64,000 bases of DNA. It comes from a virus. The notes below the pieces were generated by a model, which was not told the origin of the DNA, did no database searches, and worked only from the letters and a program-made list of their open reading frames with translations. The stretch is taken from positions 33,707-97,706 of the IMG/VR virus record IMGVR_UViG_3300045988_134682. The stretch is one strand, 5' to 3'. The translations under genes and the position numbers were made by a program. This document shows positions 2,022 through 19,140 of this stretch, piece by piece. How positions within the stretch are numbered: position 1 is the first letter of the stretch; each line of letters starts with the position of its first letter.

Positions 2022-2090
2022 AGTTAAAGAACTTTCCTCTTTTTAAATTTCTCTTAAAAATAGCAAATGTTTTAAACATTTGCTAAATAT

Positions 2091-2546: not shown

Positions 2547-2560
2547 CTTTTTAAAGGAGA

Positions 2561-3098: not shown

Positions 3099-3112
3099 CT
3101 TAAAAATCTTAA

Positions 3113-3357: not shown

Positions 3358-4881
3358 ATGAATAGTTTTATGAATGGAATGAAAGCAGCTACAAACTTCA
3401 CAACAACTGAAAATGGTGCTATTACACATAAGACAACTAATTCCGATTTGTTGGATATGTTCGCACTTGGTGGAGCATATCGTAACAGAAGCGATGATGA
3501 TGTAAAAACACTTGTAAGAAATGCTTTCAGAGAGAACCCTGTTTACGCTCTGAAATGTTTATTCTACCTGCGTGACGTGCGTGGTGGACAGGGTGAGCGT
3601 AGATTTTTCCGTGTAGCAATCAAAGATCTGGTTGCTGTCGATAGAGAAGCGGTACGTAGAAACCTGATTCATGTACCTGAGTTTGGTCGTTGGGATGATC
3701 TGTATGTATTCGTAGGAACACCTCTTGAAGGAGATGCTCTGAAGATTATGAAAGACCAGCTCGCACTTGATGTTCAGTGCAAAACTCCATCTCTGCTTGC
3801 AAAATGGCTGAAATCTGAGAATACTTCTTCTCATGAGTCTCGCAGACTTGGAAAAGTAACTCGTAAATATTTTGGAATGACTGCAAAGCAGTATCGTAAG
3901 ACTCTTTCTATCCTTCGTGCTCGTATTAACGTTCTTGAGCGTTTGATGTCTGAGAATCGTTGGGATGAAATTGAGTTCGATAAGATTCCATCTAAAGCAG
4001 GTATGAAGTATAAGAACGCTTTCGCAAGACACGACATTGAGCGTGCAAAAACTGGAGCACAGACTTATGCGGACTTTGCTAAGGATGAGACTAAGACTGT
4101 TAATGCGGCAGTCCTGAATCCAGTAGATATCGCAAGTCAGATTTTCGGTTATGGTGGATACTACGGTGCTCCAACTCAGACTAAGCGTTTGATGTGGGAT
4201 AAATATTGGGCAAACCTTAAAGACTATTACAATGGTCATGAGGAGAACGGAATTGCAATCGTCGATGTATCTGGCTCTATGAGTGGTACTCCAATGAATG
4301 CGGCAGTATCTATGGGTGCTTATATCGCAGAGCGTGGTAAAGGTCCTTTCCAGAACCATTTCATCACATTCTCCAGCAATCCTCAGCTTGTTAGATTTGA
4401 TGGAGTGGATATTTACGATAAATTCCAGAGAGCACGTTCTGCTGACTGGGGTGGAAGCACAAACATTGAGGCAACTTTTGACCTTATGTTAAATGTCGCT
4501 CTTAAAAATAAAGTTCCTGCTTCTGAGATGCCAAAAACTCTTTATATCTTCTCTGATATGGAGTTTAATGGTTGTATGTCTTTTGGACGTCCTTCCAGAA
4601 ATCGTTGGAGTTATGGAAACCGTATTACCGGTGGTATTGATGAAATCAATACTATGCTTGAGAACATTGCTCAGAAGTGGATGGCTTATGGCTATGAGCT
4701 TCCAAGAGTAATCTTCTGGAATCTTGATGCAAGACAGAATAACATTCCAGCCCTTGGCGGAAGATTCTCATATGTATCTGGATTCTCAATGACGATGGTA
4801 GAAGAAATTCTCTCTGGAGAAGATGGCTACTCTCTCATGATGAAGAAGCTCGATTCTGAAAGATACTCTTGTATTCAGTAA
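3358..4881 (+). CDS. vWA-domain protein (DUF2828-like N-terminal region plus C-terminal von Willebrand A MIDAS)
   Basis: MIDAS motif IVDVSGSMSG plus downstream T/D residues. About 280-aa N-terminal domain. RBS aaaaaggag. Confidence 0.6.
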   Translation: MNSFMNGMKAATNFTTTENGAITHKTTNSDLLDMFALGGAYRNRSDDDVKTLVRNAFRENPVYALKCLFYLRDVRGGQGERRFFRVAIKDLVAVDREAVRRNLIHVPEFGRWDDLYVFVGTPLEGDALKIMKDQLALDVQCKTPSLLAKWLKSENTSSHESRRLGKVTRKYFGMTAKQYRKTLSILRARINVLERLMSENRWDEIEFDKIPSKAGMKYKNAFARHDIERAKTGAQTYADFAKDETKTVNAAVLNPVDIASQIFGYGGYYGAPTQTKRLMWDKYWANLKDYYNGHEENGIAIVDVSGSMSGTPMNAAVSMGAYIAERGKGPFQNHFITFSSNPQLVRFDGVDIYDKFQRARSADWGGSTNIEATFDLMLNVALKNKVPASEMPKTLYIFSDMEFNGCMSFGRPSRNRWSYGNRITGGIDEINTMLENIAQKWMAYGYELPRVIFWNLDARQNNIPALGGRFSYVSGFSMTMVEEILSGEDGYSLMMKKLDSERYSCIQ

Positions 4882-4888
4882 AAATATG

Positions 4889-4918
4889 CGAGCTGGAATT
4901 TTCCAGCTCGTTTTTTTT
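4889..4918 (+). terminator. rho-independent terminator
   Basis: Stem cgagctggaa/ttccagctcg followed by T8. Confidence 0.7.
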
Positions 4919-4983
4919 GGATAAGATAGACTCAACCTTTTATTTAAAAAAGAATATAATATATAAGAAAAGGAAGAGTCTAT

Positions 4984-5700
4984 ATGAGATTTATAGATAT
5001 AACAGGTCAAAAATTTAATCATCTACAAGTTTTAGAAAGGGTTCCAGGAACCTCTCCAATACAGTGGAAATGTAAATGTGATTGCGGAAAAATAGTAAAT
5101 GTAAGAGGTACCTATTTACGAAATGGACATACTAAATCATGTGGGTGTGAAAGAGTAAAAGCTGGACAACAACAAGGTAAAAAAAATTTAAACGATTTAT
5201 CTGGTCAACATTTTGGATTCTTAACAGTATTAAAAGATACAGGAAAACGACAAAATAAAAATGTAGTATGGTTATGTAAATGCGTGTGCGGTAATGAAAC
5301 AGAAGTTCTTACAACTAATCTTCGAGATGGTTCTACAAAATCTTGTGGATGCATTAAAAAATCTTTTGGTGAAGCTAAAATAGAATCAATCTTAAAAGAA
5401 AATAAAATTTCTTATATTTCTGAATTATGTATTCCAGAATTAAATAATGCAAGATATGATTTTGCAATTTTAGAAAATAATAAAATAATTCGCTTAATAG
5501 AATTTGATGGAGAACATCATTATCAAGAAATATCTTTCCATAAAGATAACAGATATAGTTTAAAAGATAGACAAGAACGAGATAAAAAGAAAAATGAATG
5601 GGCTAAAAATAATAATATTCCACTAGTTAGAATCCCATATTGGGAAAAAGAAAATATTGCTTTAGAAATGCTAATGGATTCTAAATATGAGGTAAAATAA
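4984..5700 (+). CDS. free-standing homing-endonuclease-like protein: two Cys-rich (CxCxCG...TKSCGC) DNA-binding repeats plus C-terminal DUF559/Vsr-like (PD-(D/E)xK) nuclease
   Basis: Duplicated WKCKCDCGK...SCGCER and WLCKCVCGN...SCGCIKK modules. C-terminal DFAIL...IEFDGEHHYQ...IPLVRIPYWE matches the DUF559 (E-x-DG-x-x-H ... G-x-V-R) signature. Flanked by a duplicated gene end. Confidence 0.55.
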   Translation: MRFIDITGQKFNHLQVLERVPGTSPIQWKCKCDCGKIVNVRGTYLRNGHTKSCGCERVKAGQQQGKKNLNDLSGQHFGFLTVLKDTGKRQNKNVVWLCKCVCGNETEVLTTNLRDGSTKSCGCIKKSFGEAKIESILKENKISYISELCIPELNNARYDFAILENNKIIRLIEFDGEHHYQEISFHKDNRYSLKDRQERDKKKNEWAKNNNIPLVRIPYWEKENIALEMLMDSKYEVK

Positions 5701-5828
5701 TGACAATTAAAGAAGCTATTGAAGTATTAAAAAATCTTCATATTTCATTTGAAGACTCAGATAAAAGAGAAAAAATTAAAGAAGCGTTAGAAATAGCAAT
5801 TGCAGTCCTTGATAATGAAGATTATTGA
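5700..5828 (+). CDS. small hypothetical protein (42 aa) within the endonuclease cassette
   Basis: ATG overlaps the upstream stop (taATGa). Charged helical peptide. Low support. Confidence 0.3.
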   Translation: MTIKEAIEVLKNLHISFEDSDKREKIKEALEIAIAVLDNEDY

Positions 5829-5830
5829 AC

Positions 5831-5917
5831 ATGGTAGAAACTATTCTGTCTGGTAAGGATGGATATGATCTGATGATGGAGAAGTTGAACACTGAGCGTT
5901 ATGCCGTTATCGGTTAA
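5831..5917 (+). pseudogene. orphan duplicate of the 3' end of the vWA gene (nt 4795-4881)
   Basis: Translates to MVETILSGKDGYDLMMEKLNTERYAVIG*, versus MVEEILSGEDGYSLMMKKLDSERYSCIQ* at the true gene end. 19/28 aa identical, same length, no upstream gene body. Confidence 0.6.
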
Positions 5918-5930
5918 TGCTCCTAATTTT

Positions 5931-5960
5931 CCCTTCCGAGAAATCGGGAGGGATTTTTTT
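5931..5960 (+). terminator. rho-independent terminator
   Basis: cccttccgag...cgggaggg stem followed by T7. Confidence 0.55.
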
Positions 5961-6132
5961 ATGCCTTTAAAGAACGCATAATCTACTCCGGCCGGCCACA
6001 ACCATAAAGACCGAAAATCAAAATGAAAATTGCTTTTAGTATTTTTTTCCTGGGCAAAGCCGTTATATTACATTCGTGATTTTTTTAAGTGCTTATAGCA
6101 GGGAAATTTAAAAGAAAGGAGTAGCTTTATAT

Positions 6133-6312
6133 ATGATTATTACTACATCAAATAGTGGACATACTGCATATGGATTGAAAGATTATGTAATTGACAGGAA
6201 AGCTGATTTAGAAGATCTTCCAGTTGATGTTCCTATGGGCAGTACTGCTTTCTGCATTGAAGATAGTTCCGTATATATGATTAATAGCTCCAGAGAGTGG
6301 GTGGAAATCTAA
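6133..6312 (+). CDS. small hypothetical protein (59 aa)
   Basis: RBS aaaggag. Stop is adjacent to the start of the next gene (translational coupling). Confidence 0.4.
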   Translation: MIITTSNSGHTAYGLKDYVIDRKADLEDLPVDVPMGSTAFCIEDSSVYMINSSREWVEI

Positions 6313-7251
6313 ATGGCAATAGATGTTGTAACTCTTGCTCTTGCAAAAAAATATACAAAAGAATCTTTAGAGGGCGCAGGCGCTCTTAAGGGTGAAAAAG
6401 GAGACCCATTTACCTATAATGATTTCACTCCCGAACAACTTTTAGCTCTAAAAGGTGAAAATGGTATTGACGGCAAATCAGCCTATCAGCTTGCAGTTAA
6501 TAACGGTTTTGTTGGAACTGAAGCTGAATGGATTACTTCTCTAAAAGGAGAAACAGGACCGATCGGTCCAGCAGGACCGCAAGGTCAAACTGGAGAGACT
6601 GGCGCCACCGGTCCAGTAGGACCGCAAGGTGAAGTTGGACCAAAAGGCGATAGTTATCAAATTACAGAAAGCGATTATGCGGCGATTGCAGGCATGATTT
6701 CAGTCCCATCTAAGACTTCAGAATTAACTAATGATTCAAATTTTGTTAATGATATTAAATTAAATGGAGAACCTGTGGCAAATCAGAATGGCTCTATTGA
6801 TTTGCAGCTTGGTAACTTAGATACTACTCTTGGAGAGACTATTACGTGTAATCAAACAATTGGTGGTATTGCTGCTGGTACTACTTTTTCTGAAGATACT
6901 ACTCTTGCTGATATTATTAGAGCTTTATTAAAAATTCCTGTTGTTGAAACAGACGGAGCAATTTATTATGGACTATCACGTGATATTCCAAATTCTATTA
7001 ATGGATTAACTCCTGTTACCATTGATAGAGACACTCTTCTTTCTTCTGGTTATACTTATAAGAATATCAACACTGATAATCAGCGTGTTGTATTAGCTAT
7101 TCCTAAATCTTTTGGAATTGTTTGTTATCAGATTTCAGTTAGTGGATTTAGTATTGGTTTTGACTCTGTAGAAACTGATAAATATATTATCTATTATGAT
7201 GGACTCTCTACTGGTTCATTTAGATATGTATATAGTTTTGAGGAGGTTTAA
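6313..7251 (+). CDS. collagen-like repeat tail fibre protein
   Basis: Gly-X-Y run GETGPIGPAGPQGQTGETGATGPVGPQGEVGPKGD. C-terminal beta-rich domain. Confidence 0.65.
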   Translation: MAIDVVTLALAKKYTKESLEGAGALKGEKGDPFTYNDFTPEQLLALKGENGIDGKSAYQLAVNNGFVGTEAEWITSLKGETGPIGPAGPQGQTGETGATGPVGPQGEVGPKGDSYQITESDYAAIAGMISVPSKTSELTNDSNFVNDIKLNGEPVANQNGSIDLQLGNLDTTLGETITCNQTIGGIAAGTTFSEDTTLADIIRALLKIPVVETDGAIYYGLSRDIPNSINGLTPVTIDRDTLLSSGYTYKNINTDNQRVVLAIPKSFGIVCYQISVSGFSIGFDSVETDKYIIYYDGLSTGSFRYVYSFEEV

Positions 7252-7253
7252 GT

Positions 7254-7535
7254 ATGATTATTTTACCACAAGGATTTAAAGTATCATCCTCAGAACCGAT
7301 AGATGCTAGAATTCTTTTAACCAAAGAAGAAATGAAAAATATCAATCAAAATATAATGCCAAATATATATTTTGCATTATGTAAAGATGATGGAAAATTA
7401 TATTTATACAATAAAAACAACTCTTTTAATGATATTACTGGATATTTCTCTTTATATGAATCTCAGGTTTATGCAGATTCTATTACTCAAGAGGATATAG
7501 ACCTAATTATTGGAAAAATTAAAGAGGAACTATAA
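7254..7535 (+). CDS. hypothetical protein (tail module)
   Basis: ORF tightly coupled to the upstream fibre gene. Confidence 0.45.
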   Translation: MIILPQGFKVSSSEPIDARILLTKEEMKNINQNIMPNIYFALCKDDGKLYLYNKNNSFNDITGYFSLYESQVYADSITQEDIDLIIGKIKEEL

Positions 7536-7588
7536 AGAATAATATTCTTTATAAAATAAAATTTTTATTAAAAAGGAGGACATAAAAT

Positions 7589-7879
7589 ATGCCTGATATG
7601 AAGAAATTTTTAGATCAAGAAGGATTGGCTCTTTTATGGAGAAAGATTGAAGCTGAATTAAAAACTAGAGATGGCGGAATTTCAGAACTCTCTGATTTAA
7701 TTGAAGTTGTTGAAACTGCATTTAATAGTTACAAAACTTCAAATGATACTGCAGTGCAAACTAATACGACAGATATTGCTAGCGTTTCTAGACGAGTTGA
7801 TAGTATTGAAACTGAAATAAATAATGCAGAAGCATTCGAACCAATATCAGACAGTGATATTGATGCTCTTTTTGTTTAA
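7589..7879 (+). CDS. hypothetical structural protein with shared N-terminal motif (KKFLDxEGLALLW)
   Basis: RBS aaaggagg. N-terminus is paralogous to those of CDS 12708 and CDS 13618. Confidence 0.5.
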   Translation: MPDMKKFLDQEGLALLWRKIEAELKTRDGGISELSDLIEVVETAFNSYKTSNDTAVQTNTTDIASVSRRVDSIETEINNAEAFEPISDSDIDALFV

Positions 7880-8083
7880 AAAAGATATAAATATAAAAAG
7901 GAGATAAAAATTATGCCTTTATTAAAATATTTATTATCTAATCATTTAATTAAAGTAGATAGCTCTTTAATGAAAATTGATGAAAATAGAAAATGCTAAA
8001 GTGCCTGGGCTTTATGATGAAAATGATAATTTAATTAAAGCTTGGGATGAATTGGTAGCAGAAGGGCTGGTGACTGTTGAATA

Positions 8084-9460
8084 ATGCGTACTTTAAAGAG
8101 AGTAGATAAGAATTTAGCGGGTAAATTGAAGATTCCTAATAATATAACTAATATTGATAGTTTTGCTTTTAGCGGATGTAACAATTTAATATCAATAGAT
8201 ATCCCAAATAGTGTAACTCGAATTGATTCTGGTGCTTTTCAAGGTTGCAAAAATTTAACATCAATTCATCTTTCTGATAATATAACTTCTATTAATTGGG
8301 GAACTTTTGATAGTTGTAACAATTTAATATCAATAGATATCCCAAATAGTGTAACTCGAATTGGGGAGGGCGCCTTTAATTATTGTACGAGCTTAACATC
8401 AGTAAATATTCCAGATAGTGTAATTAGTATTGATAAGTTGGCTTTTAGAAATTGTAAAAAATTAACCTCAATAAATATTCCAGATGGTGTAATTAGTATT
8501 GGAGAAAAAACTTTTGAAGACTGTGCAAATTTAACTTCAATAAATATTCCAGATGGTGTGACCAATATTGGACAAGAAGCTTTTAAAAATTGTGCAAATT
8601 TAACTTCAATAAATATTCCAGATGGTGTAACTATTATTGGAGGTTCAGCTTTTGCTGGTTGCACGAATTTAACTTCAATAAATATTCCAGATAGTACTTC
8701 TGAAATTTATGTAGGAGCATTTAAAGATTGTGTAAATTTAACTTCAATTCGTTTTCCAGATGGATCAAAGTATGTTGCTGAGAGAGTTTGTGAAGGATGT
8801 TCAAACTTAACTTCTGTTGTTATAGCTGATAGTGTTGAAACAATTTATAAGTATGCTTTTTCTAAATGTTCTAATTTAATATCTATAGATATTCCTAGTA
8901 ATATAACTAAAATTAGTTCATATGCTTTTAGTGACTGTACAAATTTAACTTCAATTACTATTCCTAATAGTGCTGTTGATATTGAAATACATGCTTTTGA
9001 AAATTTACCTTATATGCCAAAAGGAACTTATGAATATAATTCTATGAAATATAAAAATGGAATATTATGTACTGGTATTTGGGAAGATGATTTATATTAC
9101 AAAGATGGAATATTAGGTACTGGTATTTATGAAGATAAATATTACAAAGATGGAGTACGTAGTATATTATTTACTGGTATTTATAATGATAAATACTATG
9201 AAAATGGTATGCTTTTCACTGGTATTAAGGACGGCCAATACTATGAAAATGGCGTACTTGCTAAACCAGCATATTCAACAATTACAGAATCTAATGGTGT
9301 TTTAGAAGTAACAGGTGATTATAAAGAAATCGCAAATGATAATGGCACAACTTTATATCTTGAAACGCTTGATGTTACTGAATCTAATGACACTTTAACG
9401 ATTAATAGTAATTATGTAAAAGAAATCCCTAACGAAAAGGGAACAACATTATATATTTAA
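8084..9460 (+). CDS. receptor-binding/adhesin-like protein: BspA-type leucine-rich repeats plus choline-type cell-wall-binding repeats
   Basis: About 12 tandem 22-aa LRRs (NLTSINIPDGVTxIGxxAFxxC). C-terminal YYKDG..TGIYEDKYY repeats resemble CW_binding_1 repeats. Confidence 0.7.
   Translation: MRTLKRVDKNLAGKLKIPNNITNIDSFAFSGCNNLISIDIPNSVTRIDSGAFQGCKNLTSIHLSDNITSINWGTFDSCNNLISIDIPNSVTRIGEGAFNYCTSLTSVNIPDSVISIDKLAFRNCKKLTSINIPDGVISIGEKTFEDCANLTSINIPDGVTNIGQEAFKNCANLTSINIPDGVTIIGGSAFAGCTNLTSINIPDSTSEIYVGAFKDCVNLTSIRFPDGSKYVAERVCEGCSNLTSVVIADSVETIYKYAFSKCSNLISIDIPSNITKISSYAFSDCTNLTSITIPNSAVDIEIHAFENLPYMPKGTYEYNSMKYKNGILCTGIWEDDLYYKDGILGTGIYEDKYYKDGVRSILFTGIYNDKYYENGMLFTGIKDGQYYENGVLAKPAYSTITESNGVLEVTGDYKEIANDNGTTLYLETLDVTESNDTLTINSNYVKEIPNEKGTTLYI
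8144..8990 (+). repeat. tandem 66-nt (22-codon) LRR-encoding repeats
   Basis: Near-identical nucleotide repeats, for example 8196-8250 versus 8319-8373. They also create a spurious antisense ORF. Confidence 0.7.
9044..9259 (+). repeat. tandem cell-wall-binding-type repeats (about 48-54 nt units)
   Basis: At least four repeats of the GTGIxxDxYYKDG motif. Confidence 0.55.
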
Positions 9461-9480
9461 TTTTAGGAAGAAAAAATATT

Positions 9481-9873
9481 ATGGCAATTAATAAAGTTAT
9501 TGTAAATGGTGAAACCAAACTTGATTTAACAGCTGATACTGCTACCGTAGATAATGTTCAAAAAGGTTTTACTTTTCATGATGCTACTGGTGTATTAAAA
9601 ACTGGAGTAGCTAATGTTGGCGGAATAGATGGTTATTATATTGAAAAGATTTTCGATGCTGATGAAATTCATAATGATAATAGTACTGTAAGTGTTGATG
9701 TTACCACAAATGGTAAGTATTGCTTCTTTTGTATCGATGAACTTAGTAGCTATATTAATATAATTGAATGGTATGACGGTAGTAATGGTTATAATAAAAC
9801 AGTATATGTTATATCTACTCAGCCCATTGAAAATCTATCATGGTATGAAAATAGTTCTTCTTCCTCTTACTAA
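9481..9873 (+). CDS. hypothetical protein (tail module)
   Basis: ORF with Ser-rich C-terminus. Confidence 0.45.
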   Translation: MAINKVIVNGETKLDLTADTATVDNVQKGFTFHDATGVLKTGVANVGGIDGYYIEKIFDADEIHNDNSTVSVDVTTNGKYCFFCIDELSSYINIIEWYDGSNGYNKTVYVISTQPIENLSWYENSSSSSY

Positions 9874-9894
9874 TTTTAACTCTATACAACATTT

Positions 9895-11550
9895 ATGTAT
9901 AAATTATCTATAATCACAATAAATAAAAATAATTCCATCGGATTAGAAAAAACAATTCAAAGTGTCATTAACCAAACGTATTTTGATAAAATAGAATATA
10001 TTATTATAGATGGGCTATCTACTGATAGCTCATCTTTTATAATAGACAAATACAAAGATTATTTTTCTTATTGGATTTCCGAAGAAGATAATGGTATTTA
10101 CGATGCAATGAATAAGGGTACTAATGCCGCCATAGGAAAGTATTTATTATTCTTAAATAGTGGAGATGTATTATATCATAATAAAATCATTGAAGAAATT
10201 TATTCAGAATTAAATACATATGATATTGTATATGGAGGCGTTGAATATGAAGGAGAAAAACATATTATTCGAATTCCTCCAGAAAAATTAGATTATATTT
10301 ATTTTTCAAAAAGACGATCAGTATTTCATCAGGGTGCTTTTATTTCTAAAAAATTATTATTAGAATTACCATACGACACTTCATATAAATTAATGGGAGA
10401 TGTAAATTTCTTTTTTAATGCAATATGTATAAAAAAAGCAACTTATAAAAGAATATTAAAAAAAATTGCTATTTTTGATATAAATGGGATATCTTCTAGA
10501 GAAGTTTATGCAAAAGAAAAAGAAAAAACTAAGATTCTATTAAATGGATTAAAATATATTGAAGACGAAAATATTAAACAAAATTTTCTAAAAAATATAA
10601 AAGTTTATAATCGACTTATTAATCAGCTTCCAATAGATTTTGTTTTTCCATATGTGGATAATTCCGATCCAAATTGGATTCAACAATATATGAACTGTTG
10701 TACTCGTCGTCGTATGAGATTTAATACAGAAGATGTTAGATATAGAGACTATGGCACTTTAAAATATCTTTTACGAGGAATTGATAAGTGTCTACCATGG
10801 ATTAGAAATATTTATATAATTGTTGAGCAAGAAAGTCAAGTGCCAAATTGGTTAAATAGAGATAATGTAAAAATAGTATATCACAAAGATATTATTCCAG
10901 AAGATTTTTTACCTACATATAATAGTGGAACTATTGAAATGTATTTAAAAAACATTCCTGAACTATCTGAATATTTTATATATGGAAATGATGATATGTT
11001 TCCTATTTCTTTAATGGATAAATCAAATTTTTTTGACGAAGATGGACTTCCTATTCTTTCAATGCAAAAATATCAAATGGAAGATAACTGGCGTCCTAAT
11101 ACATATCAATCTATGTTACTTAATTCTAATTTTATAGCTTATAATGATTTAAATCTTATAAGAGAAGATAATACAATAATAAAATGGAATCATACGATAA
11201 CTCCAATGAGGAAATCTACTTGGGAAGGATTATTTAATAGACATAGAGAAGAAATTGAAAAATCCTGTTCAACATTTAGATCTCCTAAAAATATAACTCA
11301 AGAATTAGTCAATTCATGGCATTATTTATCGGGTCAGTATAATAAAGATTATACATTAAAAGTGAATTATATTAGTATTCAAGATATAAAAAATGAAGAT
11401 ATCTTATATGAATCTATAAAAGATTATCAAGTTATTTGTATTAATGATGGTAATATAAATAAAGAAATTTTACCATTTGAAAAAATTAAAAGTATAATCT
11501 TGAATACATTTGAAAAATTATTCCCAGAAAAAAGTAAATATGAATTATAA
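9895..11550 (+). CDS. glycosyltransferase family 2 domain fused to a Stealth-family (hexose-1-phosphoryl transferase-like) domain
   Basis: N-terminus SIITINKNN...IEYIIIDGLSTD...EDNGIYDAMNKG matches GT2. Downstream IDFVFPYVDNSDPNWIQQY (Stealth CR2), RYRDYGTLKYLLRGIDKCLPWIRNIYIIV (CR3) and YGNDDMFPI (CR4). Confidence 0.65.
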   Translation: MYKLSIITINKNNSIGLEKTIQSVINQTYFDKIEYIIIDGLSTDSSSFIIDKYKDYFSYWISEEDNGIYDAMNKGTNAAIGKYLLFLNSGDVLYHNKIIEEIYSELNTYDIVYGGVEYEGEKHIIRIPPEKLDYIYFSKRRSVFHQGAFISKKLLLELPYDTSYKLMGDVNFFFNAICIKKATYKRILKKIAIFDINGISSREVYAKEKEKTKILLNGLKYIEDENIKQNFLKNIKVYNRLINQLPIDFVFPYVDNSDPNWIQQYMNCCTRRRMRFNTEDVRYRDYGTLKYLLRGIDKCLPWIRNIYIIVEQESQVPNWLNRDNVKIVYHKDIIPEDFLPTYNSGTIEMYLKNIPELSEYFIYGNDDMFPISLMDKSNFFDEDGLPILSMQKYQMEDNWRPNTYQSMLLNSNFIAYNDLNLIREDNTIIKWNHTITPMRKSTWEGLFNRHREEIEKSCSTFRSPKNITQELVNSWHYLSGQYNKDYTLKVNYISIQDIKNEDILYESIKDYQVICINDGNINKEILPFEKIKSIILNTFEKLFPEKSKYEL

Positions 11551-11565
11551 AAAAGGAGGCAAGAT

Positions 11566-12687
11566 ATGAAAGCACTAATTACTGGAATTAATGGGCAAGA
11601 TGGTTCATATCTTGCCGAGTTACTTTTATCGAAAAATTATGAAGTTCATGGAATTATTCGTAGAACATCGACGAACAATTTAAATAGAATTCAACATATT
11701 TTATCTAAAATTACTTTACATTATGGAGATTTATCAGATAGTTTGTCTTTGATAAAAATAATTCAAAATGTAAAGCCTGATGAAATATATAATCTTGCCG
11801 CACAATCAGATGTTAAGGTGTCATTCTCAACACCAGAATATACTGCTGATATTGATGCATTAGGAACTCTAAGATTACTAGAAGCGTGCAGAATTTGTGG
11901 AATAGATAAAACAGTTAAGTTTTATCAAGCCTCTACTTCTGAATTATTCGGAAAAGTAGAGGCTTTTCCACAATCCGAAACCACGCCATTTCATCCCTAT
12001 TCTCCATACGCAATTGCAAAACAATATTCGTATTGGATTGTAAAAGAATATAGAGAAGCATATAGAATGTTTGCGGTAAATGGTATTTTATTTAATCATG
12101 AATCTGAAAGACGTGGTGAAGAATTTGTAACTCGTAAGATAACAAAATCTGTAGCTCATATTATGAATGGCACACAAGACCATTTAGAATTAGGGAATTT
12201 AGATTCTTTAAGAGATTGGGGATATGCAAATGATTATGTTGAAGCAATGTGGTTAATGCTTCAAAACGATACCCCAGATGATTTTGTTATTGCTACTGCG
12301 GATGATGGCATTTTGATTAGTTCAAGAAATGATGCTGAAAAAATCAGAAATTTAATTCCACTTCATAGACCTAATTATGAAGAAAAAAGATGGGGCGCAT
12401 ATAAAGTTTTAAAACAAGATGATAATTATCTTGTTAAAGAATTAGAACTATTGCCTTATAAAGAAATATCTTATCAATCTCATAATTATAGAAAAGAAAC
12501 ATGGACTATTGTTCAAGGGTCTGGAGAAGTAATTATTGATGGTATTACTCAACAGGTAAAGTCTGGTGATATAGTCAATATAGAAATAAAACAAAAGCAT
12601 AAACTTATTGCTGGAGAAAATGGGATTAAAATTTTTGAAGTGCAAATAGGAGATGTGCTAGAAGAGTCTGATATTATTAGATATTAA
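11566..12687 (+). CDS. GDP-mannose 4,6-dehydratase-like SDR (truncated) fused to C-terminal cupin domain
   Basis: N-terminus [31 protein letters not shown] matches Gmd and runs to DDFVIATA. The last 110 aa or so ([30 protein letters not shown]) resemble a cupin beta-barrel. Confidence 0.65.
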
Positions 12688-12707
12688 AATAGAAAGGAAT
12701 TTTTATT

Positions 12708-13463
12708 ATGGCAAAAAAATTTTTAGATAACGTTGGTTTGGCAAAATATAATGCGAAAATTAAAGAATATATTGATGCTCAAAACGACGCGGTGAAACAA
12801 CTTGTTGGAGAAACACTTGTTACTGCTCAAATTGAAACTGCTATTTCTAATGCTAAGACTGAGCTTGAGAATAAGATTGGCAATATTACTGAAGGTAAAA
12901 CTCTTGTAAGTATGATTGCTGATAATGCCGCTGCAATTGAAGCTCATAAGACTGCGGTTGATACTAAAGTAACTACTTTAATTGGCTCTGATACTGACAA
13001 GTCTGTTCGTGATATTGCTAATGAGGAGTTGGCTGCTCAGTTAATTCCTGATGACGCTAAAGAATCTCTTAATACTCTGCAAGAGATCGCTAATTGGATT
13101 CAAAATCATCCTGATGATGCTTCTGCAATGAATGCAGCTATTGCAGCTTTACAAGCAAAAACTAAACTCGGAACATATATTCCAGAGGGACAAACAGAAG
13201 CTGTTGAATATGCAACGGTTGATGCTTATGTAGAAGCTATTAAAAAAAGCTTAACAACAAATATTTCTACTGAATTATCAAGTAAGATAGATGCTAATAA
13301 GGATGCTATCGATATCATTAATGGCGATAGTAATACAGAGGGTTCTATCAATAAGGCTCTTGCAGATGCAAAAGCATATGCTGATAATAAAATTCAATCT
13401 ATGACTAATGAAGAAATTGAAGCTATTATCGCTAATGCAAAAACATCTCAACCTCAATCTTAA
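12708..13463 (+). CDS. Ala-rich coiled-coil structural (fibre-like) protein with shared N-terminal motif
   Basis: N-terminus MAKKFLDNVGLAKY is paralogous to CDS 7589 and CDS 13618. Heptad-rich Ala/Glu/Lys sequence. Confidence 0.5.
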   Translation: MAKKFLDNVGLAKYNAKIKEYIDAQNDAVKQLVGETLVTAQIETAISNAKTELENKIGNITEGKTLVSMIADNAAAIEAHKTAVDTKVTTLIGSDTDKSVRDIANEELAAQLIPDDAKESLNTLQEIANWIQNHPDDASAMNAAIAALQAKTKLGTYIPEGQTEAVEYATVDAYVEAIKKSLTTNISTELSSKIDANKDAIDIINGDSNTEGSINKALADAKAYADNKIQSMTNEEIEAIIANAKTSQPQS

Positions 13464-13467
13464 CTCC

Positions 13468-13496
13468 TTGACAAAAAATTTTTTTTATGGTATAAT
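13468..13496 (+). promoter_or_regulatory. sigma-70-like promoter (TTGACA -17- TGgTATAAT)
   Basis: ttgaca 13468-13473, tataat 13491-13496. Confidence 0.5.
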
Positions 13497-13545
13497 ATAA
13501 TTATATAAGGGGGATAAAAAAGGAATTATTCCTTTTTATCCCCCT
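13497..13545 (+). other. strong leader hairpin (aagggggataaaaaagg/cctttttatccccctt) followed by T-run, between promoter and CDS 13618
   Basis: Roughly 16-bp stem immediately after the -10 element, followed by tattttttaag. Attenuator-like or terminator-like. Confidence 0.45.
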
Positions 13546-13617
13546 TATATTTTTTAAGAAAATAATTCTAAAATAAAAATCTTTTATCTTAAGAAGTTAG
13601 TAAAAGGAGGATAAAGT

Positions 13618-13929
13618 ATGGCAGCATCTAAAAAAATTTTAGATGAAAATGGATTATTAGCATTATGGCATCAAATTGAAAATAATTTTATTTCATCTGA
13701 GAATATTGAACAAATTGTTTATGCAATTGAGTCAATTAAAGCAGATAAAGATTCTCCTGAATTTACAGGAATTCCAATTGCTCCAACCGCAAGTCCAAAT
13801 ACAAATACCACACAAATTGCAACTACTGAATTTGTTAATACTGCTATTGCTGAATTAAGTGCATTATTTTCTTCTTACAAAGAGCAAGTAGATAATGCTT
13901 TAGCAGAGATAAAAAATAAAATAGGCTAA
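13618..13929 (+). CDS. hypothetical structural protein with shared N-terminal motif
   Basis: RBS aaaaggagg. N-terminus MAASKKILDENGLLALWHQIE. Confidence 0.5.
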   Translation: MAASKKILDENGLLALWHQIENNFISSENIEQIVYAIESIKADKDSPEFTGIPIAPTASPNTNTTQIATTEFVNTAIAELSALFSSYKEQVDNALAEIKNKIG

Positions 13930-13967
13930 ATAGATATTTTATATCTATTTAGCCTATTTTATTTTTT
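13924..13967 (+). terminator. rho-independent terminator
   Basis: ggctaaatagatat/atatctatttagcc stem followed by a T-rich run. Overlaps the stop codon. Confidence 0.65.
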
Positions 13968-14030: not shown

Positions 14031-14840
14031 ATGAAAGATATTAGCTATTATTGGGCAGATAAATCTCAAAGAGCAATTATTGCACAAGAGCATACTAAGC
14101 AAATGAATGAGCAATTTGCTAGTGAGATTGCGGAAAGTGTAATGAATAGTAAAATTTATAGCAAAGATTTTAAAGCAACAACGCCCGCAAGAAATTTAGA
14201 GGAAGCAGATATTGCTCTTGATGCTGTTGGAAGTGTTGAAGCTATTGTAGCTTGCGATTCTACAGATGGAAAAGTTGCGGTTCTTAATTTCGCTTCATAT
14301 AAAAATCCTGGCGGAATGTTTATTAATGGGTCTCGTGCTCAGGAAGAATGTCTGTGCCATGAATCTTTTCTTTACAACGTATTAAGCCAAATTCCAAATT
14401 ATTATGATTGGAATGAAAAACACAAGAATCGTGCTTTATATGAGAATAGAGCAATTTATTCTCCAAATATCAGATTTGAGCATTCTGGCATTGAAAAATA
14501 CTGCGATGTAATTACTTGCGCCGCACCTAATTTTACTGCCGCTGCAAAGTATTGCAACGTAGATAGAAAAGAAAATAAAAAAGTTCTTGAATCAAGAATT
14601 CGATTCGTTTTTGAAGTAGCAAAACAGAATCAGGTTGATACTCTCATTTTAGGGGCTTTTGGATGCGGAGTGTTTGGACAGAATGCAGATGATGTTGCAG
14701 AAATTTTTATCAATCTGTTAGTTACAGATTATGCAACTGAATTTAAGAAAGTAATTTTCGCAATTCCGATTATCAATAATGATTCTATCAATTACAGTAA
14801 ATTTCAGAATATGTTTGATGAATTGTTAGAGGAGAATTAA
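14031..14840 (+). CDS. PARG-like macrodomain protein (DUF2263 / bacterial-type poly(ADP-ribose) glycohydrolase family)
   Basis: Signature NFASYKNPGGMFINGSRAQEECLC (GGG-x6-8-QEE) and glycine-rich ILGAFGCGVFGQN diphosphate-binding loop. Confidence 0.6.
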   Translation: MKDISYYWADKSQRAIIAQEHTKQMNEQFASEIAESVMNSKIYSKDFKATTPARNLEEADIALDAVGSVEAIVACDSTDGKVAVLNFASYKNPGGMFINGSRAQEECLCHESFLYNVLSQIPNYYDWNEKHKNRALYENRAIYSPNIRFEHSGIEKYCDVITCAAPNFTAAAKYCNVDRKENKKVLESRIRFVFEVAKQNQVDTLILGAFGCGVFGQNADDVAEIFINLLVTDYATEFKKVIFAIPIINNDSINYSKFQNMFDELLEEN

Positions 14841-15051: not shown

Positions 15052-15356
15052 CGTATATTTCTGAATATTTTTATAGTAATTGCTTAATCGAAGCTATTAA
15101 AGCTAAGATTAAGCATCCTATAAAAGTAAAAATAAAATATATTCCAGCAAGATTAAATGAAGTATTTTGTCCGCATTTAATGTGGCATGATGGTGAATAT
15201 ACTTATGATTTTTGGGCTTGCGGGCATTTAAAGCCATATCAAATTTTATGGCATAAAGGTAAGATAAGAAAAAACGAATATGATTATTATGATAAATGTA
15301 TAAAAACTTTAAAAGAATGGAAAGAAAGAGGTAAACAAGATGCCGGTAAGAGATGA
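15033..15356 (+). CDS. hypothetical protein
   Basis: ORF overlapping both neighbours (operonic). Confidence 0.4.
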   Translation: MVSKIMTYISEYFYSNCLIEAIKAKIKHPIKVKIKYIPARLNEVFCPHLMWHDGEYTYDFWACGHLKPYQILWHKGKIRKNEYDYYDKCIKTLKEWKERGKQDAGKR

Positions 15357-16215
15357 TTTAGGTACTCGTATGAAAACCTTTTATGAAAATATTCCTAAAA
15401 CTCGACTTATGAGAAGAGTTCCAGTAGCAATTAGGCTGGACGGCAAGGCGTTTCATACTTTTACAAGAGGTTTTCAAAAGCCATTTGATTTTGTGCTAAT
15501 GGATACAATGCAACAAACAATGAAATATTTATGTGAAAATATTCAAGGATGTGTATTGGGATATACTCAGTCTGATGAGATTACATTGATTCTTGTTGAT
15601 TATAAGAAATTAAATTCTGCTGCATGGTTTGATTATGAAGTTCAGAAAATGTGCAGTATCGCAGCAAGTATGGCTACAATGGCGTTTAATAGATTTTTCA
15701 TGTATGAATATGAAGAGTTTAATAGATGGGTTAATGAAGGAAATCCAACAGATGAAGATAGACGATTAAATGATATTTATTATGATGCGATGTGTAAAGG
15801 TGCAATGTTTGATGCACGTTGTTTCAATATTCCAAAAGAAGAAGTAACTAACCTCATTTATTGGCGGCAACTTGATGCAACAAGAAATAGTATTCAAATG
15901 GTTGGACAAGCTCATTTTTCACATGATGAGCTTCAAGATAAAACTTGTAATATGATTCAAGATATGTTAATGACCAAGTATGGCATTAACTGGAATGATT
16001 TTACAACACCATGTAAACGAGGCACTGCATGTATTAGAATTGGAAAAAAAGTAACTGAAAATATCAAAAGAGAACCTCAACCTTTTGGAGAAGATAAAGT
16101 TACAACTACAATTATTGAAGAAAGACCTATCTGGGTTATTGACAAGAATATGCCTATTTTAAAAGGCGAAGACCGCAAATATGTTGATGATTTAATTTAC
16201 ATAGGAGAAGAATAA
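15340..16215 (+). CDS. Thg1-like protein (tRNA-His guanylyltransferase family, 3'-5' nucleotidyltransferase)
   Basis: VPVAIRLDGKAFHTFTRGFQKPFD...VLGYTQSDEITLIL aligns with the Thg1/TLP core motifs (RxDG+xFHxF, KPxD, YGQSDE). Confidence 0.75.
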   Translation: MPVRDDLGTRMKTFYENIPKTRLMRRVPVAIRLDGKAFHTFTRGFQKPFDFVLMDTMQQTMKYLCENIQGCVLGYTQSDEITLILVDYKKLNSAAWFDYEVQKMCSIAASMATMAFNRFFMYEYEEFNRWVNEGNPTDEDRRLNDIYYDAMCKGAMFDARCFNIPKEEVTNLIYWRQLDATRNSIQMVGQAHFSHDELQDKTCNMIQDMLMTKYGINWNDFTTPCKRGTACIRIGKKVTENIKREPQPFGEDKVTTTIIEERPIWVIDKNMPILKGEDRKYVDDLIYIGEE

Positions 16216-16368
16216 ATGATAAGAGGATATAGCATTTCTGAAGAGGATATTGATAGAGTAATGCCTTTTGTAAGAGGTGTGATTCATGAACTTGAAGTCA
16301 GTATTTCTATGTATTATTGCGGATATACAGGAGAAATTTCTTTGGGTATTTGTGAGGAGGAATGCTAA
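16216..16368 (+). CDS. small hypothetical protein (50 aa)
   Basis: Start adjacent to the upstream stop. Overlaps the next start. Confidence 0.3.
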   Translation: MIRGYSISEEDIDRVMPFVRGVIHELEVSISMYYCGYTGEISLGICEEEC

Positions 16369-16796
16369 TGGGGTGTAATTATGATATTACAAAAGTGAAT
16401 AAATTATTTAATTTGGCAGTTCAATATTATCCTAAGAAAAAATTAGTTCATGCTTTGCGGGTTGCTGAATATGCGACCGCAAAAGCCAGTGCTTTAAAAA
16501 TTGATACAGTAAAGACTTATATGATCGCCTTAGCGCACGATTTGTTAGAGGATACTGAATGTCCAAAAGAAGATTTAATGTCTATTTTAGGTATAGAGAG
16601 TTATAATTCAGTAGTTCTTTTAACTAAAGATGCACAAGAAAAATATGAAGATTATATTCATAAGATTCTTGATGCAGGAGATGACTATGCTTTTGTTGTT
16701 AAACAGGCAGATATGAAAGACCATATGACTTTAACTGATACACTTACAGAAAAATTGCTGGATAAATATATTCCTGTATTGCATTATTTCTTATAA
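16362..16796 (+). CDS. HD-domain phosphohydrolase (YfbR/DatZ-like dNTPase or Mesh1/SpoT-like hydrolase)
   Basis: H...HALRVA...ALAHDLLEDT motif (H, HD, D metal ligands). Confidence 0.55.
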   Translation: MLMGCNYDITKVNKLFNLAVQYYPKKKLVHALRVAEYATAKASALKIDTVKTYMIALAHDLLEDTECPKEDLMSILGIESYNSVVLLTKDAQEKYEDYIHKILDAGDDYAFVVKQADMKDHMTLTDTLTEKLLDKYIPVLHYFL

Positions 16797-16810
16797 GGAA
16801 GGATTTATGT

Positions 16811-17167
16811 ATGATTTTTAACTGGAAAGAGAAAATGTTTTTAATTATTCTTTTATGTATATTATTTACATCTTTAAATATGTTTTTTCGACCTAAATCT
16901 GCGGAAAAGATGCAAATTTTTCCATCTTATGATTGGGGAAGTGAAGAAGAAGAAATTTTAGCTTATATTTCTGCAAATACAAATGGAACTGATAAAGATA
17001 AACAACAAGCTGTTATTGATTGTTTAGATTATGTATGGGACGCAAATCATCATTTTAATATTTCTGAATATGCTTCTGCGAAATATAAATTTTATGTTGA
17101 ACCAACCCAGCATGATTATGAACTTGTAAGATTGGTTAAAAAGGGACAATGGGCAACCGATGATTAA
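16811..17167 (+). CDS. hypothetical membrane/secreted protein
   Basis: N-terminal hydrophobic helix MFLIILLCILFTSLNMFF. Confidence 0.4.
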   Translation: MIFNWKEKMFLIILLCILFTSLNMFFRPKSAEKMQIFPSYDWGSEEEEILAYISANTNGTDKDKQQAVIDCLDYVWDANHHFNISEYASAKYKFYVEPTQHDYELVRLVKKGQWATDD

Positions 17168-17199
17168 AGGAGAAAGTTTAAATACTTTCTCCTTTTTTT
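17167..17199 (+). terminator. rho-independent terminator
   Basis: ggagaaagt/actttctcc stem followed by T7. Confidence 0.65.
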
Positions 17200-17226
17200 G
17201 ATTTTTTATTAAAAATTTATTATAAT
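17198..17226 (+). promoter_or_regulatory. conserved-family promoter
   Basis: ttgatt 17198-17203, 17-nt spacer, tataat 17221-17226, then atatatagaaaattaaaggaaggtg. Confidence 0.55.
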
Positions 17227-17258
17227 ATATATAGAAAATTAAAGGAAGGTGAGAAAGC

Positions 17259-18080
17259 ATGGCAGATCTTAATACAATAACTAAAGCGGCTAGTGGTATT
17301 CAAGAGCATTATCTTGAATCTAAACAATACTTTGCTAAGAATAATATTGTAGGTATTTTTCTACAAGGTAGTCAGAATTATGGTCTTGAAACTGAAGATT
17401 CTGATATTGATACAAAACTTATTACCACTCCAACATTAAATGATTTAATTTATAACCGAAAACCTATGTCTACAACTCATTTTAGGGCTAATGGGGAACA
17501 TATTGATTTTAAAGATATTAGGCTTATGTTTGATACTTTCCGCAAACAGAATCTAAATTTTATTGAGATTCTGTTCACTAATTATAAAATCATCAATCCA
17601 ATGTATGAAAAAGAGTGGAATAAATTGATTGCGGAAAATGAAGTTATTGCACATTATAATCCTTATTTCGCAGTAAAAGCTATGTCTGGCATTGCTCTTG
17701 GAAAAAGATATGCTCTTACTAAAGAAACAGAAGCTCATAAAGGAACCTTTGAAAAGTTTAATTATGACCCAAAACAGCTTTATCAGCTTGTGAGAATTGA
17801 TGAATATCTCGATAAATATATTGCTGGAGCGCCATATAAAGAATGTTTGTGTCCAGCTAACCCGCAATATTTAAAAGACATTAAAACTGGTCTTTATTCA
17901 AAAGAAGAAGCTATTAAAGTTGCAGATGAACATATGACTCATATTGATAAAATTTGTGCCCCATATACAAAAGATTCTGAATTTAACTACATTGATGAAG
18001 AAGCTGAAAATCTTCTGCAAGAAGTCCAAGCGGAAATTATGAAGAAAAGTATTGCTTTTGAATTGGAGGAAAAGAAATGA
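17259..18080 (+). CDS. Pol-beta-superfamily nucleotidyltransferase-domain protein
   Basis: GSQNYGLETEDSDID (GS-x10-DxD) motif near the N-terminus. Helical C-terminal domain. Confidence 0.5.
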   Translation: MADLNTITKAASGIQEHYLESKQYFAKNNIVGIFLQGSQNYGLETEDSDIDTKLITTPTLNDLIYNRKPMSTTHFRANGEHIDFKDIRLMFDTFRKQNLNFIEILFTNYKIINPMYEKEWNKLIAENEVIAHYNPYFAVKAMSGIALGKRYALTKETEAHKGTFEKFNYDPKQLYQLVRIDEYLDKYIAGAPYKECLCPANPQYLKDIKTGLYSKEEAIKVADEHMTHIDKICAPYTKDSEFNYIDEEAENLLQEVQAEIMKKSIAFELEEKK

Positions 18081-18865
18081 TTAAACAGTTTTTTGTAACA
18101 GGAGATACACATGGCTGTATGGATCGTTTTACATGGCTTGAAATACAAAATCCAAAAGAGACTGGTATTATTATCTTAGGAGATGCAGGTGTAAATTTTT
18201 ATAAAAGTGCGGCAAGGCAACATGATATTAAGATGCAACTTGAACAATATGGATGTACATTTTATTTGGTAAGGGGGAATCATGAGGCTCGTCCAGAAGA
18301 TGTTAAAGGCATTGAAGAGGTTTGGGATGATGATGTTGCGAATTATGTTTTCATTGAACCCGGTTATCCTCATATCCATTATCTTATGGATGGCTCTAAT
18401 TATGATTTTCTTGGTCATAATACACTTGTAATAGGTGGAGCTTATTCTGTGGATAAATGGTATAGACTTGAAAATCATTATACTTGGTATCCAAACGAAC
18501 AATTAACAGAAGCAGAAATGCAGGCTATTGAAGCAATGTATGCGGGACAAAGTTTTGATTTTGTTTTTACTCATACTTGTCCATTAAGCTGGGAACCAAC
18601 TGACTTATTTTTATCTATGATTGACCAGTCTACTGTAGATGATTCTATGGAAGTTTGGCTTGATTCTTTTAAAGATAAGATTAATTGGGGCGTTTGGCTG
18701 TTTGGTCACTTTCACGCAGATAGAATGGAGCGCCCGCATGTTGAACAATATTTTAAAGCAATCGAAGATTTAGAAGAGATATGGAAAAGATGGAATGATC
18801 CAAATTATTTACTTCCAACTTATTTTAGAAAATCTCCTAATTTTAATAAAGGAAAAACTGAATAA
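18077..18865 (+). CDS. calcineurin-like metallophosphoesterase
   Basis: Motifs GDTHG, GDAG, GNHE and GHFH. Confidence 0.65.
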   Translation: MIKQFFVTGDTHGCMDRFTWLEIQNPKETGIIILGDAGVNFYKSAARQHDIKMQLEQYGCTFYLVRGNHEARPEDVKGIEEVWDDDVANYVFIEPGYPHIHYLMDGSNYDFLGHNTLVIGGAYSVDKWYRLENHYTWYPNEQLTEAEMQAIEAMYAGQSFDFVFTHTCPLSWEPTDLFLSMIDQSTVDDSMEVWLDSFKDKINWGVWLFGHFHADRMERPHVEQYFKAIEDLEEIWKRWNDPNYLLPTYFRKSPNFNKGKTE

Positions 18866-18880
18866 GTTTTTCCTTTATTG
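18851..18880 (+). terminator. rho-independent terminator
   Basis: ggaaaaact...agtttttcc stem followed by a T-run. Confidence 0.55.
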
Positions 18881-18906
18881 ATTTTTTATTAAAATTATAA
18901 TATAAT
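18878..18906 (+). promoter_or_regulatory. conserved-family promoter
   Basis: ttgatt 18878-18883, 17-nt spacer, tataat 18901-18906, then atatatagaaagttaaggaaagg. Confidence 0.55.
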
Positions 18907-18939
18907 ATATATAGAAAGTTAAGGAAAGGATAAAAAGAA

Positions 18940-19122: not shown

Positions 19123-19140
19123 AGAGAGGATTGATACATT

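Follow-up and report, generated by a model that had tools for sequence, protein, structure and literature searches.

The 64,000-nucleotide (nt) stretch analysed here, called the window below, covers positions 33,707 to 97,706 of IMG/VR virus record IMGVR_UViG_3300045988_134682 and belongs to a 195-kb phage. It carries two adjacent open reading frames (ORFs), ORF A (9895-11550, 551 aa) and ORF B (11566-12687, 373 aa), both on the given strand, which an initial annotation made from the letters alone had described as a sugar-nucleotide and glycosyltransferase cassette embedded in the tail-fibre module. ORF calling placed both genes exactly where that annotation had them, and its assignment of family 2 glycosyltransferase (GT2), Stealth, Gmd-like and cupin domains was upheld by profile searches. 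The genome nevertheless retains only the scar of a sugar-nucleotide cassette, as the GDP-L-fucose pathway has been deleted from it while being kept in near-identical relatives. ORF B is the in-frame scar of a recent 2,072-bp deletion that runs from the middle of gmd to the middle of manC, and ORF A is an intact gene whose family is under purifying selection. The locus thus very probably represents the degraded form of a glycan-modification module, carried by a large phage that infects a Gram-positive gut bacterium, and the finding amounts to a phage glycan-modifying moron plus an ordinary deletion.

The domain content of ORF B corresponds to two incomplete enzymes. Its N-terminal part (aa 4-245) matches the Pfam family GDP_Man_Dehyd (PF16363, E 8e-116) over profile positions 1-250 of 332, the gmd model TIGR01472 is covered at positions 2-253 of 342 only, and 11 of 11 solved GDP-mannose 4,6-dehydratases (GMDs) align solely to aa 3-246. 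The C-terminal part (aa 267-372) is a MannoseP_isomer cupin (PF01050, E 4e-18), more precisely the C-terminal domain of a ManC-type GMP/PMI (TIGR01479 positions 312-460 of 467). The Rossmann motif GINGQDG (7-13) and the residues TSE (124-126) and YAIAK (148-152), that is, the cofactor motif and the [ST]SE...Yx3K signature, are all kept. Missing are 26 near-invariant GMD positions (conserved in at least 97% of homologs), including the FRPTEV motif, as well as the ManC nucleotidyltransferase (NTP_transferase) domain, PF00483, which is present in the manC products of intact relatives. ORF B fails as a full-length two-domain GMD, for which the parental gmd of contig L009 scores 536 bits over positions 2-340. 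The protein is therefore neither a complete GMD nor a complete ManC, but Gmd(1-244) followed in frame by ManC(275-403). The initial annotation was right that a short-chain dehydrogenase/reductase (SDR) is cut after its catalytic half and joined to a cupin; what it took for an unusual working fusion is the in-frame remnant of the 2,072-bp deletion, for which no enzyme activity is predicted.

Comparison with relatives defines the event to the nucleotide. Among 8,000 homologs scored, the closest GMDs, which share 88-99% identity over aa 1-246, are without exception intact and about 341 aa long, the 373-aa form is represented by this exact sequence only, plus one distant analogue called P0022, and the Gmd-cupin architecture is not conserved at depth. 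On the relatives' contigs the ancestral layout consists of GT2-Stealth, gmd (341 aa), fcl (311 aa) and manC (403 aa), then the genes for the 251-aa and 103-aa proteins that the window has as well. The order GT2-Stealth, gmd, fcl, manC is seen in L001, L009, L012 (cut at its GT2-Stealth end) and L177, and the cassette of L002 has an additional manB-like mutase gene. In blastn alignments with L009, a contig from pig gut, identity is 99.24% over window positions 9678-12298 and 97.4% over 12287-13883, and 2,072 bp of L009 between the two matched segments are missing from the window. For L010 and L011 the identity is 99.6%, with a match that ends at 12298. The 5′ 733 nt of gmd (gmd′, 11566-12298, Gmd aa 1-244) show 99.2-99.6% nt identity to the intact gmd of L009, L010 and L011, every match ending at 12298, while the 3′ 389 nt of manC (′manC, 12299-12687, ManC aa 275-403), which include the native stop codon, are 97-99% identical to the manC 3′ end in L001, L009 and L012.

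The two blastn segments overlap at 12287-12298, where a 12-nt imperfect microhomology, TTATTGCTACTG in gmd versus TTATCGCTATTG in manC, marks the deletion junction, with the crossover between 12298 and 12299. The junction was read base by base against both parental sites in L001 and L002: on the gmd side GTTATTGCTACTG is followed by GAGAAC, on the manC side ATTATCGCTATTG is followed by CGGATGATGG, and in the window GTTATTGCTACTG runs directly into CGGATGATGG. Deleted were the GMD C-terminus (~97 residues), the whole GDP-L-fucose synthase and the catalytic nucleotidyltransferase domain of ManC. Judged by profile scores, the genes concerned are a gmd (536 bits), a GDP-L-fucose synthase gene (NF047922, 485 bits) and a manC of the GMP/PMI type. 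Given the ~99% identity to intact parents the deletion must be very recent, and since parts of gmd and manC and all of fcl are gone, the phage is no longer able to make GDP-fucose.

In the distant analogue P0022 (contigs L005-L007, from three samples) the breakpoints lie near codon 238 of gmd and near codon 207 of manC. This fusion is in frame as well, and its codon 67 is a TAA nonsense codon. With two independent gmd′-′manC fusions, the pathway has been lost at least twice. The L005-L007 lineage reads TGA as Trp, and in-frame TGA codons occupy conserved Trp positions of its GT2-Stealth gene as well as of its gmd′-′manC remnant; ORFs A and B of the window phage use only TGG for Trp.

ORF A is made of two enzymatic halves. 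The N-terminal GT-A/GT2 half (about aa 1-202, 9895-10500) matches Glycos_transf_2 (PF00535, aa 5-130, E 4e-15), and its best NCBIfam match is WcaE (TIGR04009, E 1.4e-23). Of the solved structures, the one that matches best is WrtF, whose structure was the first to be determined for a GT2 GDP-L-fucose fucosyltransferase. This holds by sequence (2.5e-8) and, with entries 9OMH-9OMN, by GT-A fold in Foldseek (E about 3e-16, TM 0.70-0.74), where heparosan synthase, TarP and RmlT rank behind it. Four of five active-site residues correspond, WrtF D66, H142, D167 and F191 (F/Y) being D65, H145, D169 and F194 in ORF A. At the DxD position, N88-S89-G90-D91 (encoded at 10156-10167) aligns to WrtF G89-A-D-D92; N(A/S)GD is invariant here in alignment A2 and is a variant common to WbdO, Bf4306 and WcaE, as opposed to G-A-D-D in WrtF. 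In sequence, motifs and predicted fold, the GT2 half thus appears closest to GT2 GDP-fucose fucosyltransferases of the WrtF/WcaE type. Like this group (WrtF, WbdO, Bf4306, WcaE, GtfD) it has a predicted GT-A fold, with equivalents of four of the five active-site residues of WrtF and the N(A/S)GD of WbdO, Bf4306 and WcaE, and ORF A homologs are genetically linked to gmd-fcl-manC in relatives. A fucosyltransferase-like domain beside a GDP-L-fucose pathway makes a coherent picture. ORF A has ~20% identity to WrtF and is, unlike the enzymes of that group, fused to a putative phosphotransferase.

A helical linker (about aa 204-245, 10504-10629; AlphaFold2 (AF2) helices at 204-221, 225-237 and 240-243, pLDDT 80-95) leads to the Stealth half (aa 246-551, 10630-11550). 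Stealth_CR2 (PF11380) is matched at aa 282-386 over positions 1-106 of 108, with E 2.2e-33 and 115 bits against a cut-off of 39.4. According to the definition of the family (Sperisen 2005), conserved region (CR) 1 reads IDVVYTF or very similar, CR2 spans about 100 residues and is the most conserved, and CR4 holds the tetrapeptide CLND or CIND. In ORF A, IDFVFPY (aa 247-253, 10633-10653) aligns to the N-terminus of Mycobacterium tuberculosis CpsY, and CIND is found at aa 515-518 (11437-11448) with C515, N517 and D518 conserved. By these motifs and the CpsY alignment, two landmarks of the initial annotation have to be moved: DNSDPNW, which it put in CR2, directly follows the CR1 motif, and NDD (aa 365-367, 10987-10995), which it put in CR4, belongs to CR2. 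The Stealth half aligns end to end with CpsY (8J2N, E 1e-25). E348, N365, D367 and the CR3 arginine R462 (11278-11280) correspond to CpsY E305, N322, D324 and R419, whose mutation abolishes or strongly reduces activity, and are invariant in 15 fusion proteins (alignment A1). The AF2 model of ORF A (pLDDT 94.3, pTM 0.85) has two domains joined by helices, and Foldseek returned CpsY 8J2N first (E 1.7e-23, TM 0.89-0.90, rmsd 2.5 Å), next GNPTAB entries (E 1e-16 to 5e-21) and then WrtF. Alignment and model together show a complete Stealth domain in the C-terminal half, a putative hexose-1-phosphate transferase.

The ORF A family comprises eleven members of 551-570 aa with 69-100% identity, and pairwise dN/dS values are 0.10-0.18 in the GT2 half and 0.13-0.35 in the Stealth half: ORF A itself is uninterrupted, and purifying selection acts on its family. 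The model lacks a hydrophobic membrane anchor and the protein is therefore probably cytoplasmic; we infer a soluble bifunctional enzyme. A G167R substitution was considered as a sign of relaxed selection, but the column is Gly in 113 of 120 homologs and Arg in 5, which was too weak to be used. Neither was the L009 contig taken as evidence for decay: its split GT2-Stealth gene goes back to a T5-to-T4 homopolymer difference and its split 251-aa gene to a scaffold N-gap, both of which were treated as matters of assembly quality.

The fusion claimed by the initial annotation is thus real, conserved and probably active. It is not unusual in itself, for fusions of glycosyltransferase and Stealth domains are common in metagenomic proteins, in both domain orders and with other GT families too. 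With known Stealth enzymes (CpsY, the meningococcal serogroup A/X capsule polymerases and GNPTAB, the GlcNAc-1-phosphotransferase of metazoans) ORF A shares the four conserved regions, the essential Glu/Asn/Asp/Arg and the fold; unlike them it is phage-encoded and fused to a GT-A domain, Stealth polymerases being treated in the literature as single-domain enzymes. We found neither a characterised GT2-Stealth fusion nor a description of a phage Stealth enzyme in the literature. For the assembly of sugar and sugar phosphate the closest functional analogy would be the GT-A/TagF-like capsule polymerases CslB, Cps12B, Cps1B and Ccs2, which make poly(oligosaccharide phosphate) and likewise combine a GT-A and a hexose-phosphate transferase domain in one polypeptide. 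The likeness is functional and architectural only: the second domain of ORF A is Stealth, not TagF-like, by profile and fold, the protein is shorter (551 aa versus genes of more than 2,500 bp), and it is carried by a phage and not by a capsule locus.

GT2-Stealth occurs in at least five phage backbones, namely the window's phage, L002, L005, L176 and L177. L002 is temperate, with genes for an integrase, XkdX and an NLPC_P60 endolysin. In L176 (61 kb) the gene, 78% identical, adjoins Phage_fiber_2 and a ChW endolysin gene and stands without gmd, fcl or manC, while L177 (48.6 kb) has the intact cassette among large tail genes. A gene for a BspA-type leucine-rich-repeat (LRR) protein lies just upstream of GT2-Stealth in four of the five backbones (window, L002, L005, L176) and is its most consistent companion. 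The comparison thus bears out that the cassette accompanies fibre-like genes in several phage backbones. In L002 a gene with Mtd_N (major tropism determinant, 1040-1957) is found upstream of the LRR and GT2-Stealth module, which suggests a target of a diversity-generating retroelement nearby, and the tail-gene region of L177 encodes a 917-aa protein (4508-7261) with an intein (Hint/Intein_splicing, faint LAGLIDADG).

Beyond these contigs the family is sparse. No GenBank phage matched the Stealth half, PHROGs hold no family for ORF A, and single-sequence and close-family scans of IMG/VR with ORF A gave no matches or GT2-only matches. A Stealth-only profile detected 94 distant viral Stealth genes in IMG/VR; among the 80 that were examined, none has a homolog of the GT2 half or GDP-fucose genes within 8 kb. 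Viral GDP-fucose genes as such have precedents. Cyanomyophages such as P-SSM2 and S-SRM01 carry genes of this kind, gmd′ being 64-69% identical to cyanophage gmd at the DNA and up to ~68% at the protein level, and the pathway is complete in the relatives of the window phage; unlike the cyanophage gmd, the window gene is truncated and chimeric and its pathway is gone. Chloroviruses also encode GDP-mannose 4,6-dehydratase and GDP-fucose genes.

The host is probably a Gram-positive gut bacterium, with clues that point to the Bacillota. The window phage has an SH3_3 endolysin, its lysin domain resembles the lysins of Acutalibacter and Faecalibacterium phages, its Pol III alpha is closest to those of Enterococcus and Bacillus SPbeta phages, and ChW, XkdX and NLPC_P60 genes are present in relatives.

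We read the locus as follows. The ancestral order, which near-identical relatives have kept, is an LRR fibre-like gene, a small ORF, GT2-Stealth, gmd, fcl, in some cases manB, manC and the 251-aa gene, with ManC, Gmd and Fcl together making GDP-L-fucose. Illegitimate recombination across the 12-nt microhomology then removed 2,072 bp and fused Gmd(1-244) to ManC(275-403). The GT-A half of ORF A may transfer L-fucose from GDP-fucose, which would now have to be supplied by the host, and the Stealth half may transfer hexose- or HexNAc-1-phosphate from a UDP-sugar to make a phosphodiester, so that both halves together would add or polymerise a unit of fucose and sugar phosphate. For the target we see about an even chance that it is a cytoplasmically assembled cell-wall glycopolymer of the host, in which case the receptor seen by the adjacent fibre genes might be altered. 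A host wall target is favoured because the known relatives of both domains use lipid-linked or polysaccharide acceptors and because there is a prophage precedent in TarP. Like seroconverting phages, TarP, a prophage GT-A enzyme acting on wall teichoic acid and one of the structural neighbours of the GT2 half, represents a phage-borne GT-A with a possible change of a Gram-positive wall-glycopolymer receptor, and the relative L002 has an integrase. TarP differs in being a single-domain GlcNAc transferase, and a wall-polymer change is only predicted for ORF A.

Several findings weigh against parts of this interpretation. The WcaE score of the GT2 half (83.5 bits) is far under the equivalog cut-off of 369.2, so ORF A is not a WcaE ortholog, and WrtF Asn143, which is Asn in all five known GT2 fucosyltransferases, is replaced by Gln146, invariant in the family. 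In the Stealth half, CR4 (aa 511-551) scores 26.3 bits and falls just under its cut-off of 27.4, and the Pfam CR1 and CR3 models gave no match to ORF A. A prophage copy was not found in 185,579 species genomes by a scan seeded on the GT2 N-terminus only, which returned generic WcaE-like GT2s of at most 45% identity, mostly from Bacteroidota. The adjacency to fibre genes fits virion glycosylation equally well. As to the deletion, the allele is known from one sample and sequencing run only (ERR414342) and could be fixed or a minority variant; and the independent P0022 fusion, also in frame, has its gmd breakpoint within ~6 codons of that of the window, which could hint at selection for chimeras of this kind.

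The restriction of the allele to a single run, together with the absence of the junction 29-mer from the JGI metagenome and IMG/VR collections, could be read as the mark of an assembly or amplification artefact, the real genome having intact gmd-fcl-manC. It is most improbable that this is the case. Misassembly is unlikely because a 12-nt imperfect repeat lies far below the assembler k-mers (k = 127 by the contig name) and cannot mislead assemblers at this length, and the identical protein is present in ENA, Logan, JGI and NCBI versions, although these are possibly non-independent assemblies. Only the window and the contig it comes from contain the 29-mer, and the negative scans are uninformative and carry no weight since neither collection contains the source contig. 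Hardly more credible is the idea that the Gmd-cupin chimera is a selected functional protein, for instance one in which the SDR substrate domain was swapped for a sugar-binding cupin to give a new nucleotide-sugar activity. The chimera is indeed in frame, its Rossmann motif, TSE/YxxxK residues and complete cupin are kept, and the second independent in-frame fusion, in three samples, has a nearby gmd breakpoint. Yet the sequence is 99% identical to intact parents, very recent and limited to one sample, its junction falls at a microhomology as illegitimate recombination predicts, the 26 near-invariant GMD positions are gone, the second fusion has its TAA stop at codon 67, and the homologs scored do not conserve the architecture. 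The in-frame pair is not read as selection because two in-frame outcomes would occur by chance with a probability of about 1/9 and the fusion search detects in-frame products only, which amounts to an ascertainment bias. Likeliest is that the in-frame state reflects chance, or selection for translation running into the downstream gene, and not a new enzyme function.

For ORF A the alternatives concern its target and whether it still works. It is possible, though less probable than a host wall target, that the same enzymology serves to glycosylate the phage's own virion proteins (the LRR, the 130-aa or the 251-aa protein) with fucose and sugar phosphate. This would suit the position of GT2-Stealth inside fibre-gene clusters in the five backbones, the LRR gene as upstream neighbour in four of them, the probable co-transcription of ORF A with fibre-like genes as judged from gene gaps and terminators, the probably cytoplasmic location of an enzyme without a membrane anchor, and the action of the Stealth relative GNPTAB on glycoprotein glycans. 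Mycobacteriophages also glycosylate capsid and tail proteins by means of GT2 genes located among structural genes. Set against this, all characterised GT2 fucosyltransferases use lipid-linked or polysaccharide acceptors, bacterial Stealth enzymes act on polysaccharides, an acceptor motif was not identified, and a receptor-modifying gene beside receptor-binding genes is likewise a classic arrangement of seroconverting phages. A bolder variant, modelled on GNPTAB, would make ORF A a virion phosphoglycosylation enzyme that puts fucose and hexose-1-phosphate on LRR or fibre proteins, with the GDP-fucose genes as a detachable supply that comes and goes with what the host provides; we consider it rather unlikely, but if true ORF A would, to our knowledge, be the first viral Stealth enzyme to be given a function, and no phage particle would have been known before to bear a phosphodiester-linked glycan. 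There is similarly little reason to expect that the whole module is dispensable cargo in decay, in which ORF A is already functionless for want of fucose and merely not yet mutated. So recent a deletion would not yet have left damage in ORF A, the 3 synonymous and 3 non-synonymous changes between ORF A and L010 give a high ratio (from tiny counts), and the pathway remnant is further decayed in the P0022 lineage. But L176 keeps a stable GT2-Stealth, at 78% identity, without phage fucose genes, the Stealth half would need host UDP-sugars only, and the GT2-Stealth gene of the P0022 lineage has kept its full length when read with code 4, with low pairwise dN/dS (0.11-0.28) for L005.

A degraded module around a preserved ORF A has consequences at several levels. 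For annotation, an apparent domain fusion turns out to be an evolutionarily "days-old" scar, which was revealed solely by near-identical relatives. For enzymology, a small gut-phage family combining a fucosyltransferase-like GT-A with a Stealth domain is a candidate for a one-polypeptide route to glycans of fucose and sugar phosphate. For phage biology, sugar-nucleotide supply appears to be gained and lost around a stable core of enzyme and fibre genes in at least five backbones, one of which reads TGA as Trp, and the system is tractable for finding out if the role of such enzymes is to mask receptors on the host or to decorate the virion.

The genes next to ORF A and ORF B form a tightly packed unit with them. 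Upstream, the BspA-type LRR fibre-like protein (458 aa, 8084-9460; Pfam LRR_5, E 1.5e-93) ends in YYxxG repeats for which a significant Pfam family was not found; a reading as cell-wall-binding repeats was rejected, the best Pfam match being MORN_2 at E 0.5. Between the LRR gene and GT2-Stealth, with gaps of 20-21 nt on either side, lies a 130-aa ORF (9481-9873) with neither a Pfam nor a PHROG match. Its C-terminus is a Ser-rich tail (NSSSSSY; ENSSSSSY) that might be a candidate glycosylation acceptor. The gene for the 251-aa helical protein (12708-13463), which in relatives follows manC, closes the unit. This protein has no significant Pfam or PHROG family match; the homolog after manC in L001 is 94% identical to it, and the one in L002 shares 50% identity across the N-terminal 155 aa. 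From 8084 to 13463 the gaps between genes are just 15-21 nt and a strong internal terminator was not found, while a terminator-like hairpin (5930-5953) is located 5′ of the whole fibre-like island (about 6133-13929). All these genes are on the same strand as ORFs A and B.

The flanking genes are fibre-like, as the initial annotation had it, and include those for a collagen-repeat protein, for the BspA-LRR protein and for a protein of 103 aa with matches to tail-fibre PHROGs. The surroundings of the island consist of tRNA genes and genes for a Ro-like protein, a poly(ADP-ribose) glycohydrolase (PARG), Thg1, an RNA ligase, a PurA/PurZ-like enzyme, PhoH, an endolysin, gyrase, ligase, DnaB, RecJ and Pol III alpha. 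Since the island thus sits among RNA-repair, nucleotide-metabolism and replication genes, it is not a canonical tail module.

Some further features of the island were observed. Directly after the 251-aa gene there is a sigma-70 promoter that matches the consensus perfectly (TTGACA-17-TATAAT, plus a TG upstream), followed by a palindrome with a 20-bp stem (13468-13550), and another palindrome with a stem of this length lies behind the gene for the 103-aa fibre-like protein, at 13916-13962. The latter hairpin was considered as a dispersed repeat, but the window has no further copy. Three small proteins (7589-7879, 12708-13463 and 13618-13929) have in common the N-terminal motif K-[FI]-LD-x-x-GL-x-x-[LY]-[WN]-x-x-I, with the copies KKFLDQEGLALLWRKI, KKFLDNVGLAKYNAKI and KKILDENGLLALWHQI; it may serve as a shared segment by which interchangeable fibre-like proteins are attached.

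The window also holds an unusually large tRNA and RNA-repair set (1489-3099, 3358-4881 and 15340-22492). Four tRNA genes (Leu-taa, Gly-tcc, Lys-ttt, Cys-gca) stand beside a gene for a Ro60/TROVE-like RNA-binding protein (phrog_850, E 3e-128), and Thg1, an HD protein, a nucleotidyltransferase, phosphoesterases and the RNA ligase are encoded further downstream. An HNH/homing-endonuclease gene (4984-5700; phrog_374, E 1e-38) separates the Ro-like gene from the fibre-like island. The PARG is of the microbial type with a macro domain (14031-14840, E 8e-30), and its position is kept in L001. A 510-aa protein with SPFH/Band-7 and flotillin-like similarity is encoded at 31251-32783. The adenylosuccinate-synthetase-like protein at 28094-29272 matches the PHROG "2-aminooxy adenylosuccinate synthetase" (E 2e-37) and, in part, PF00709; we take this product to be PurZ-like, and the match could mean a genome with 2-aminoadenine (Z-base).

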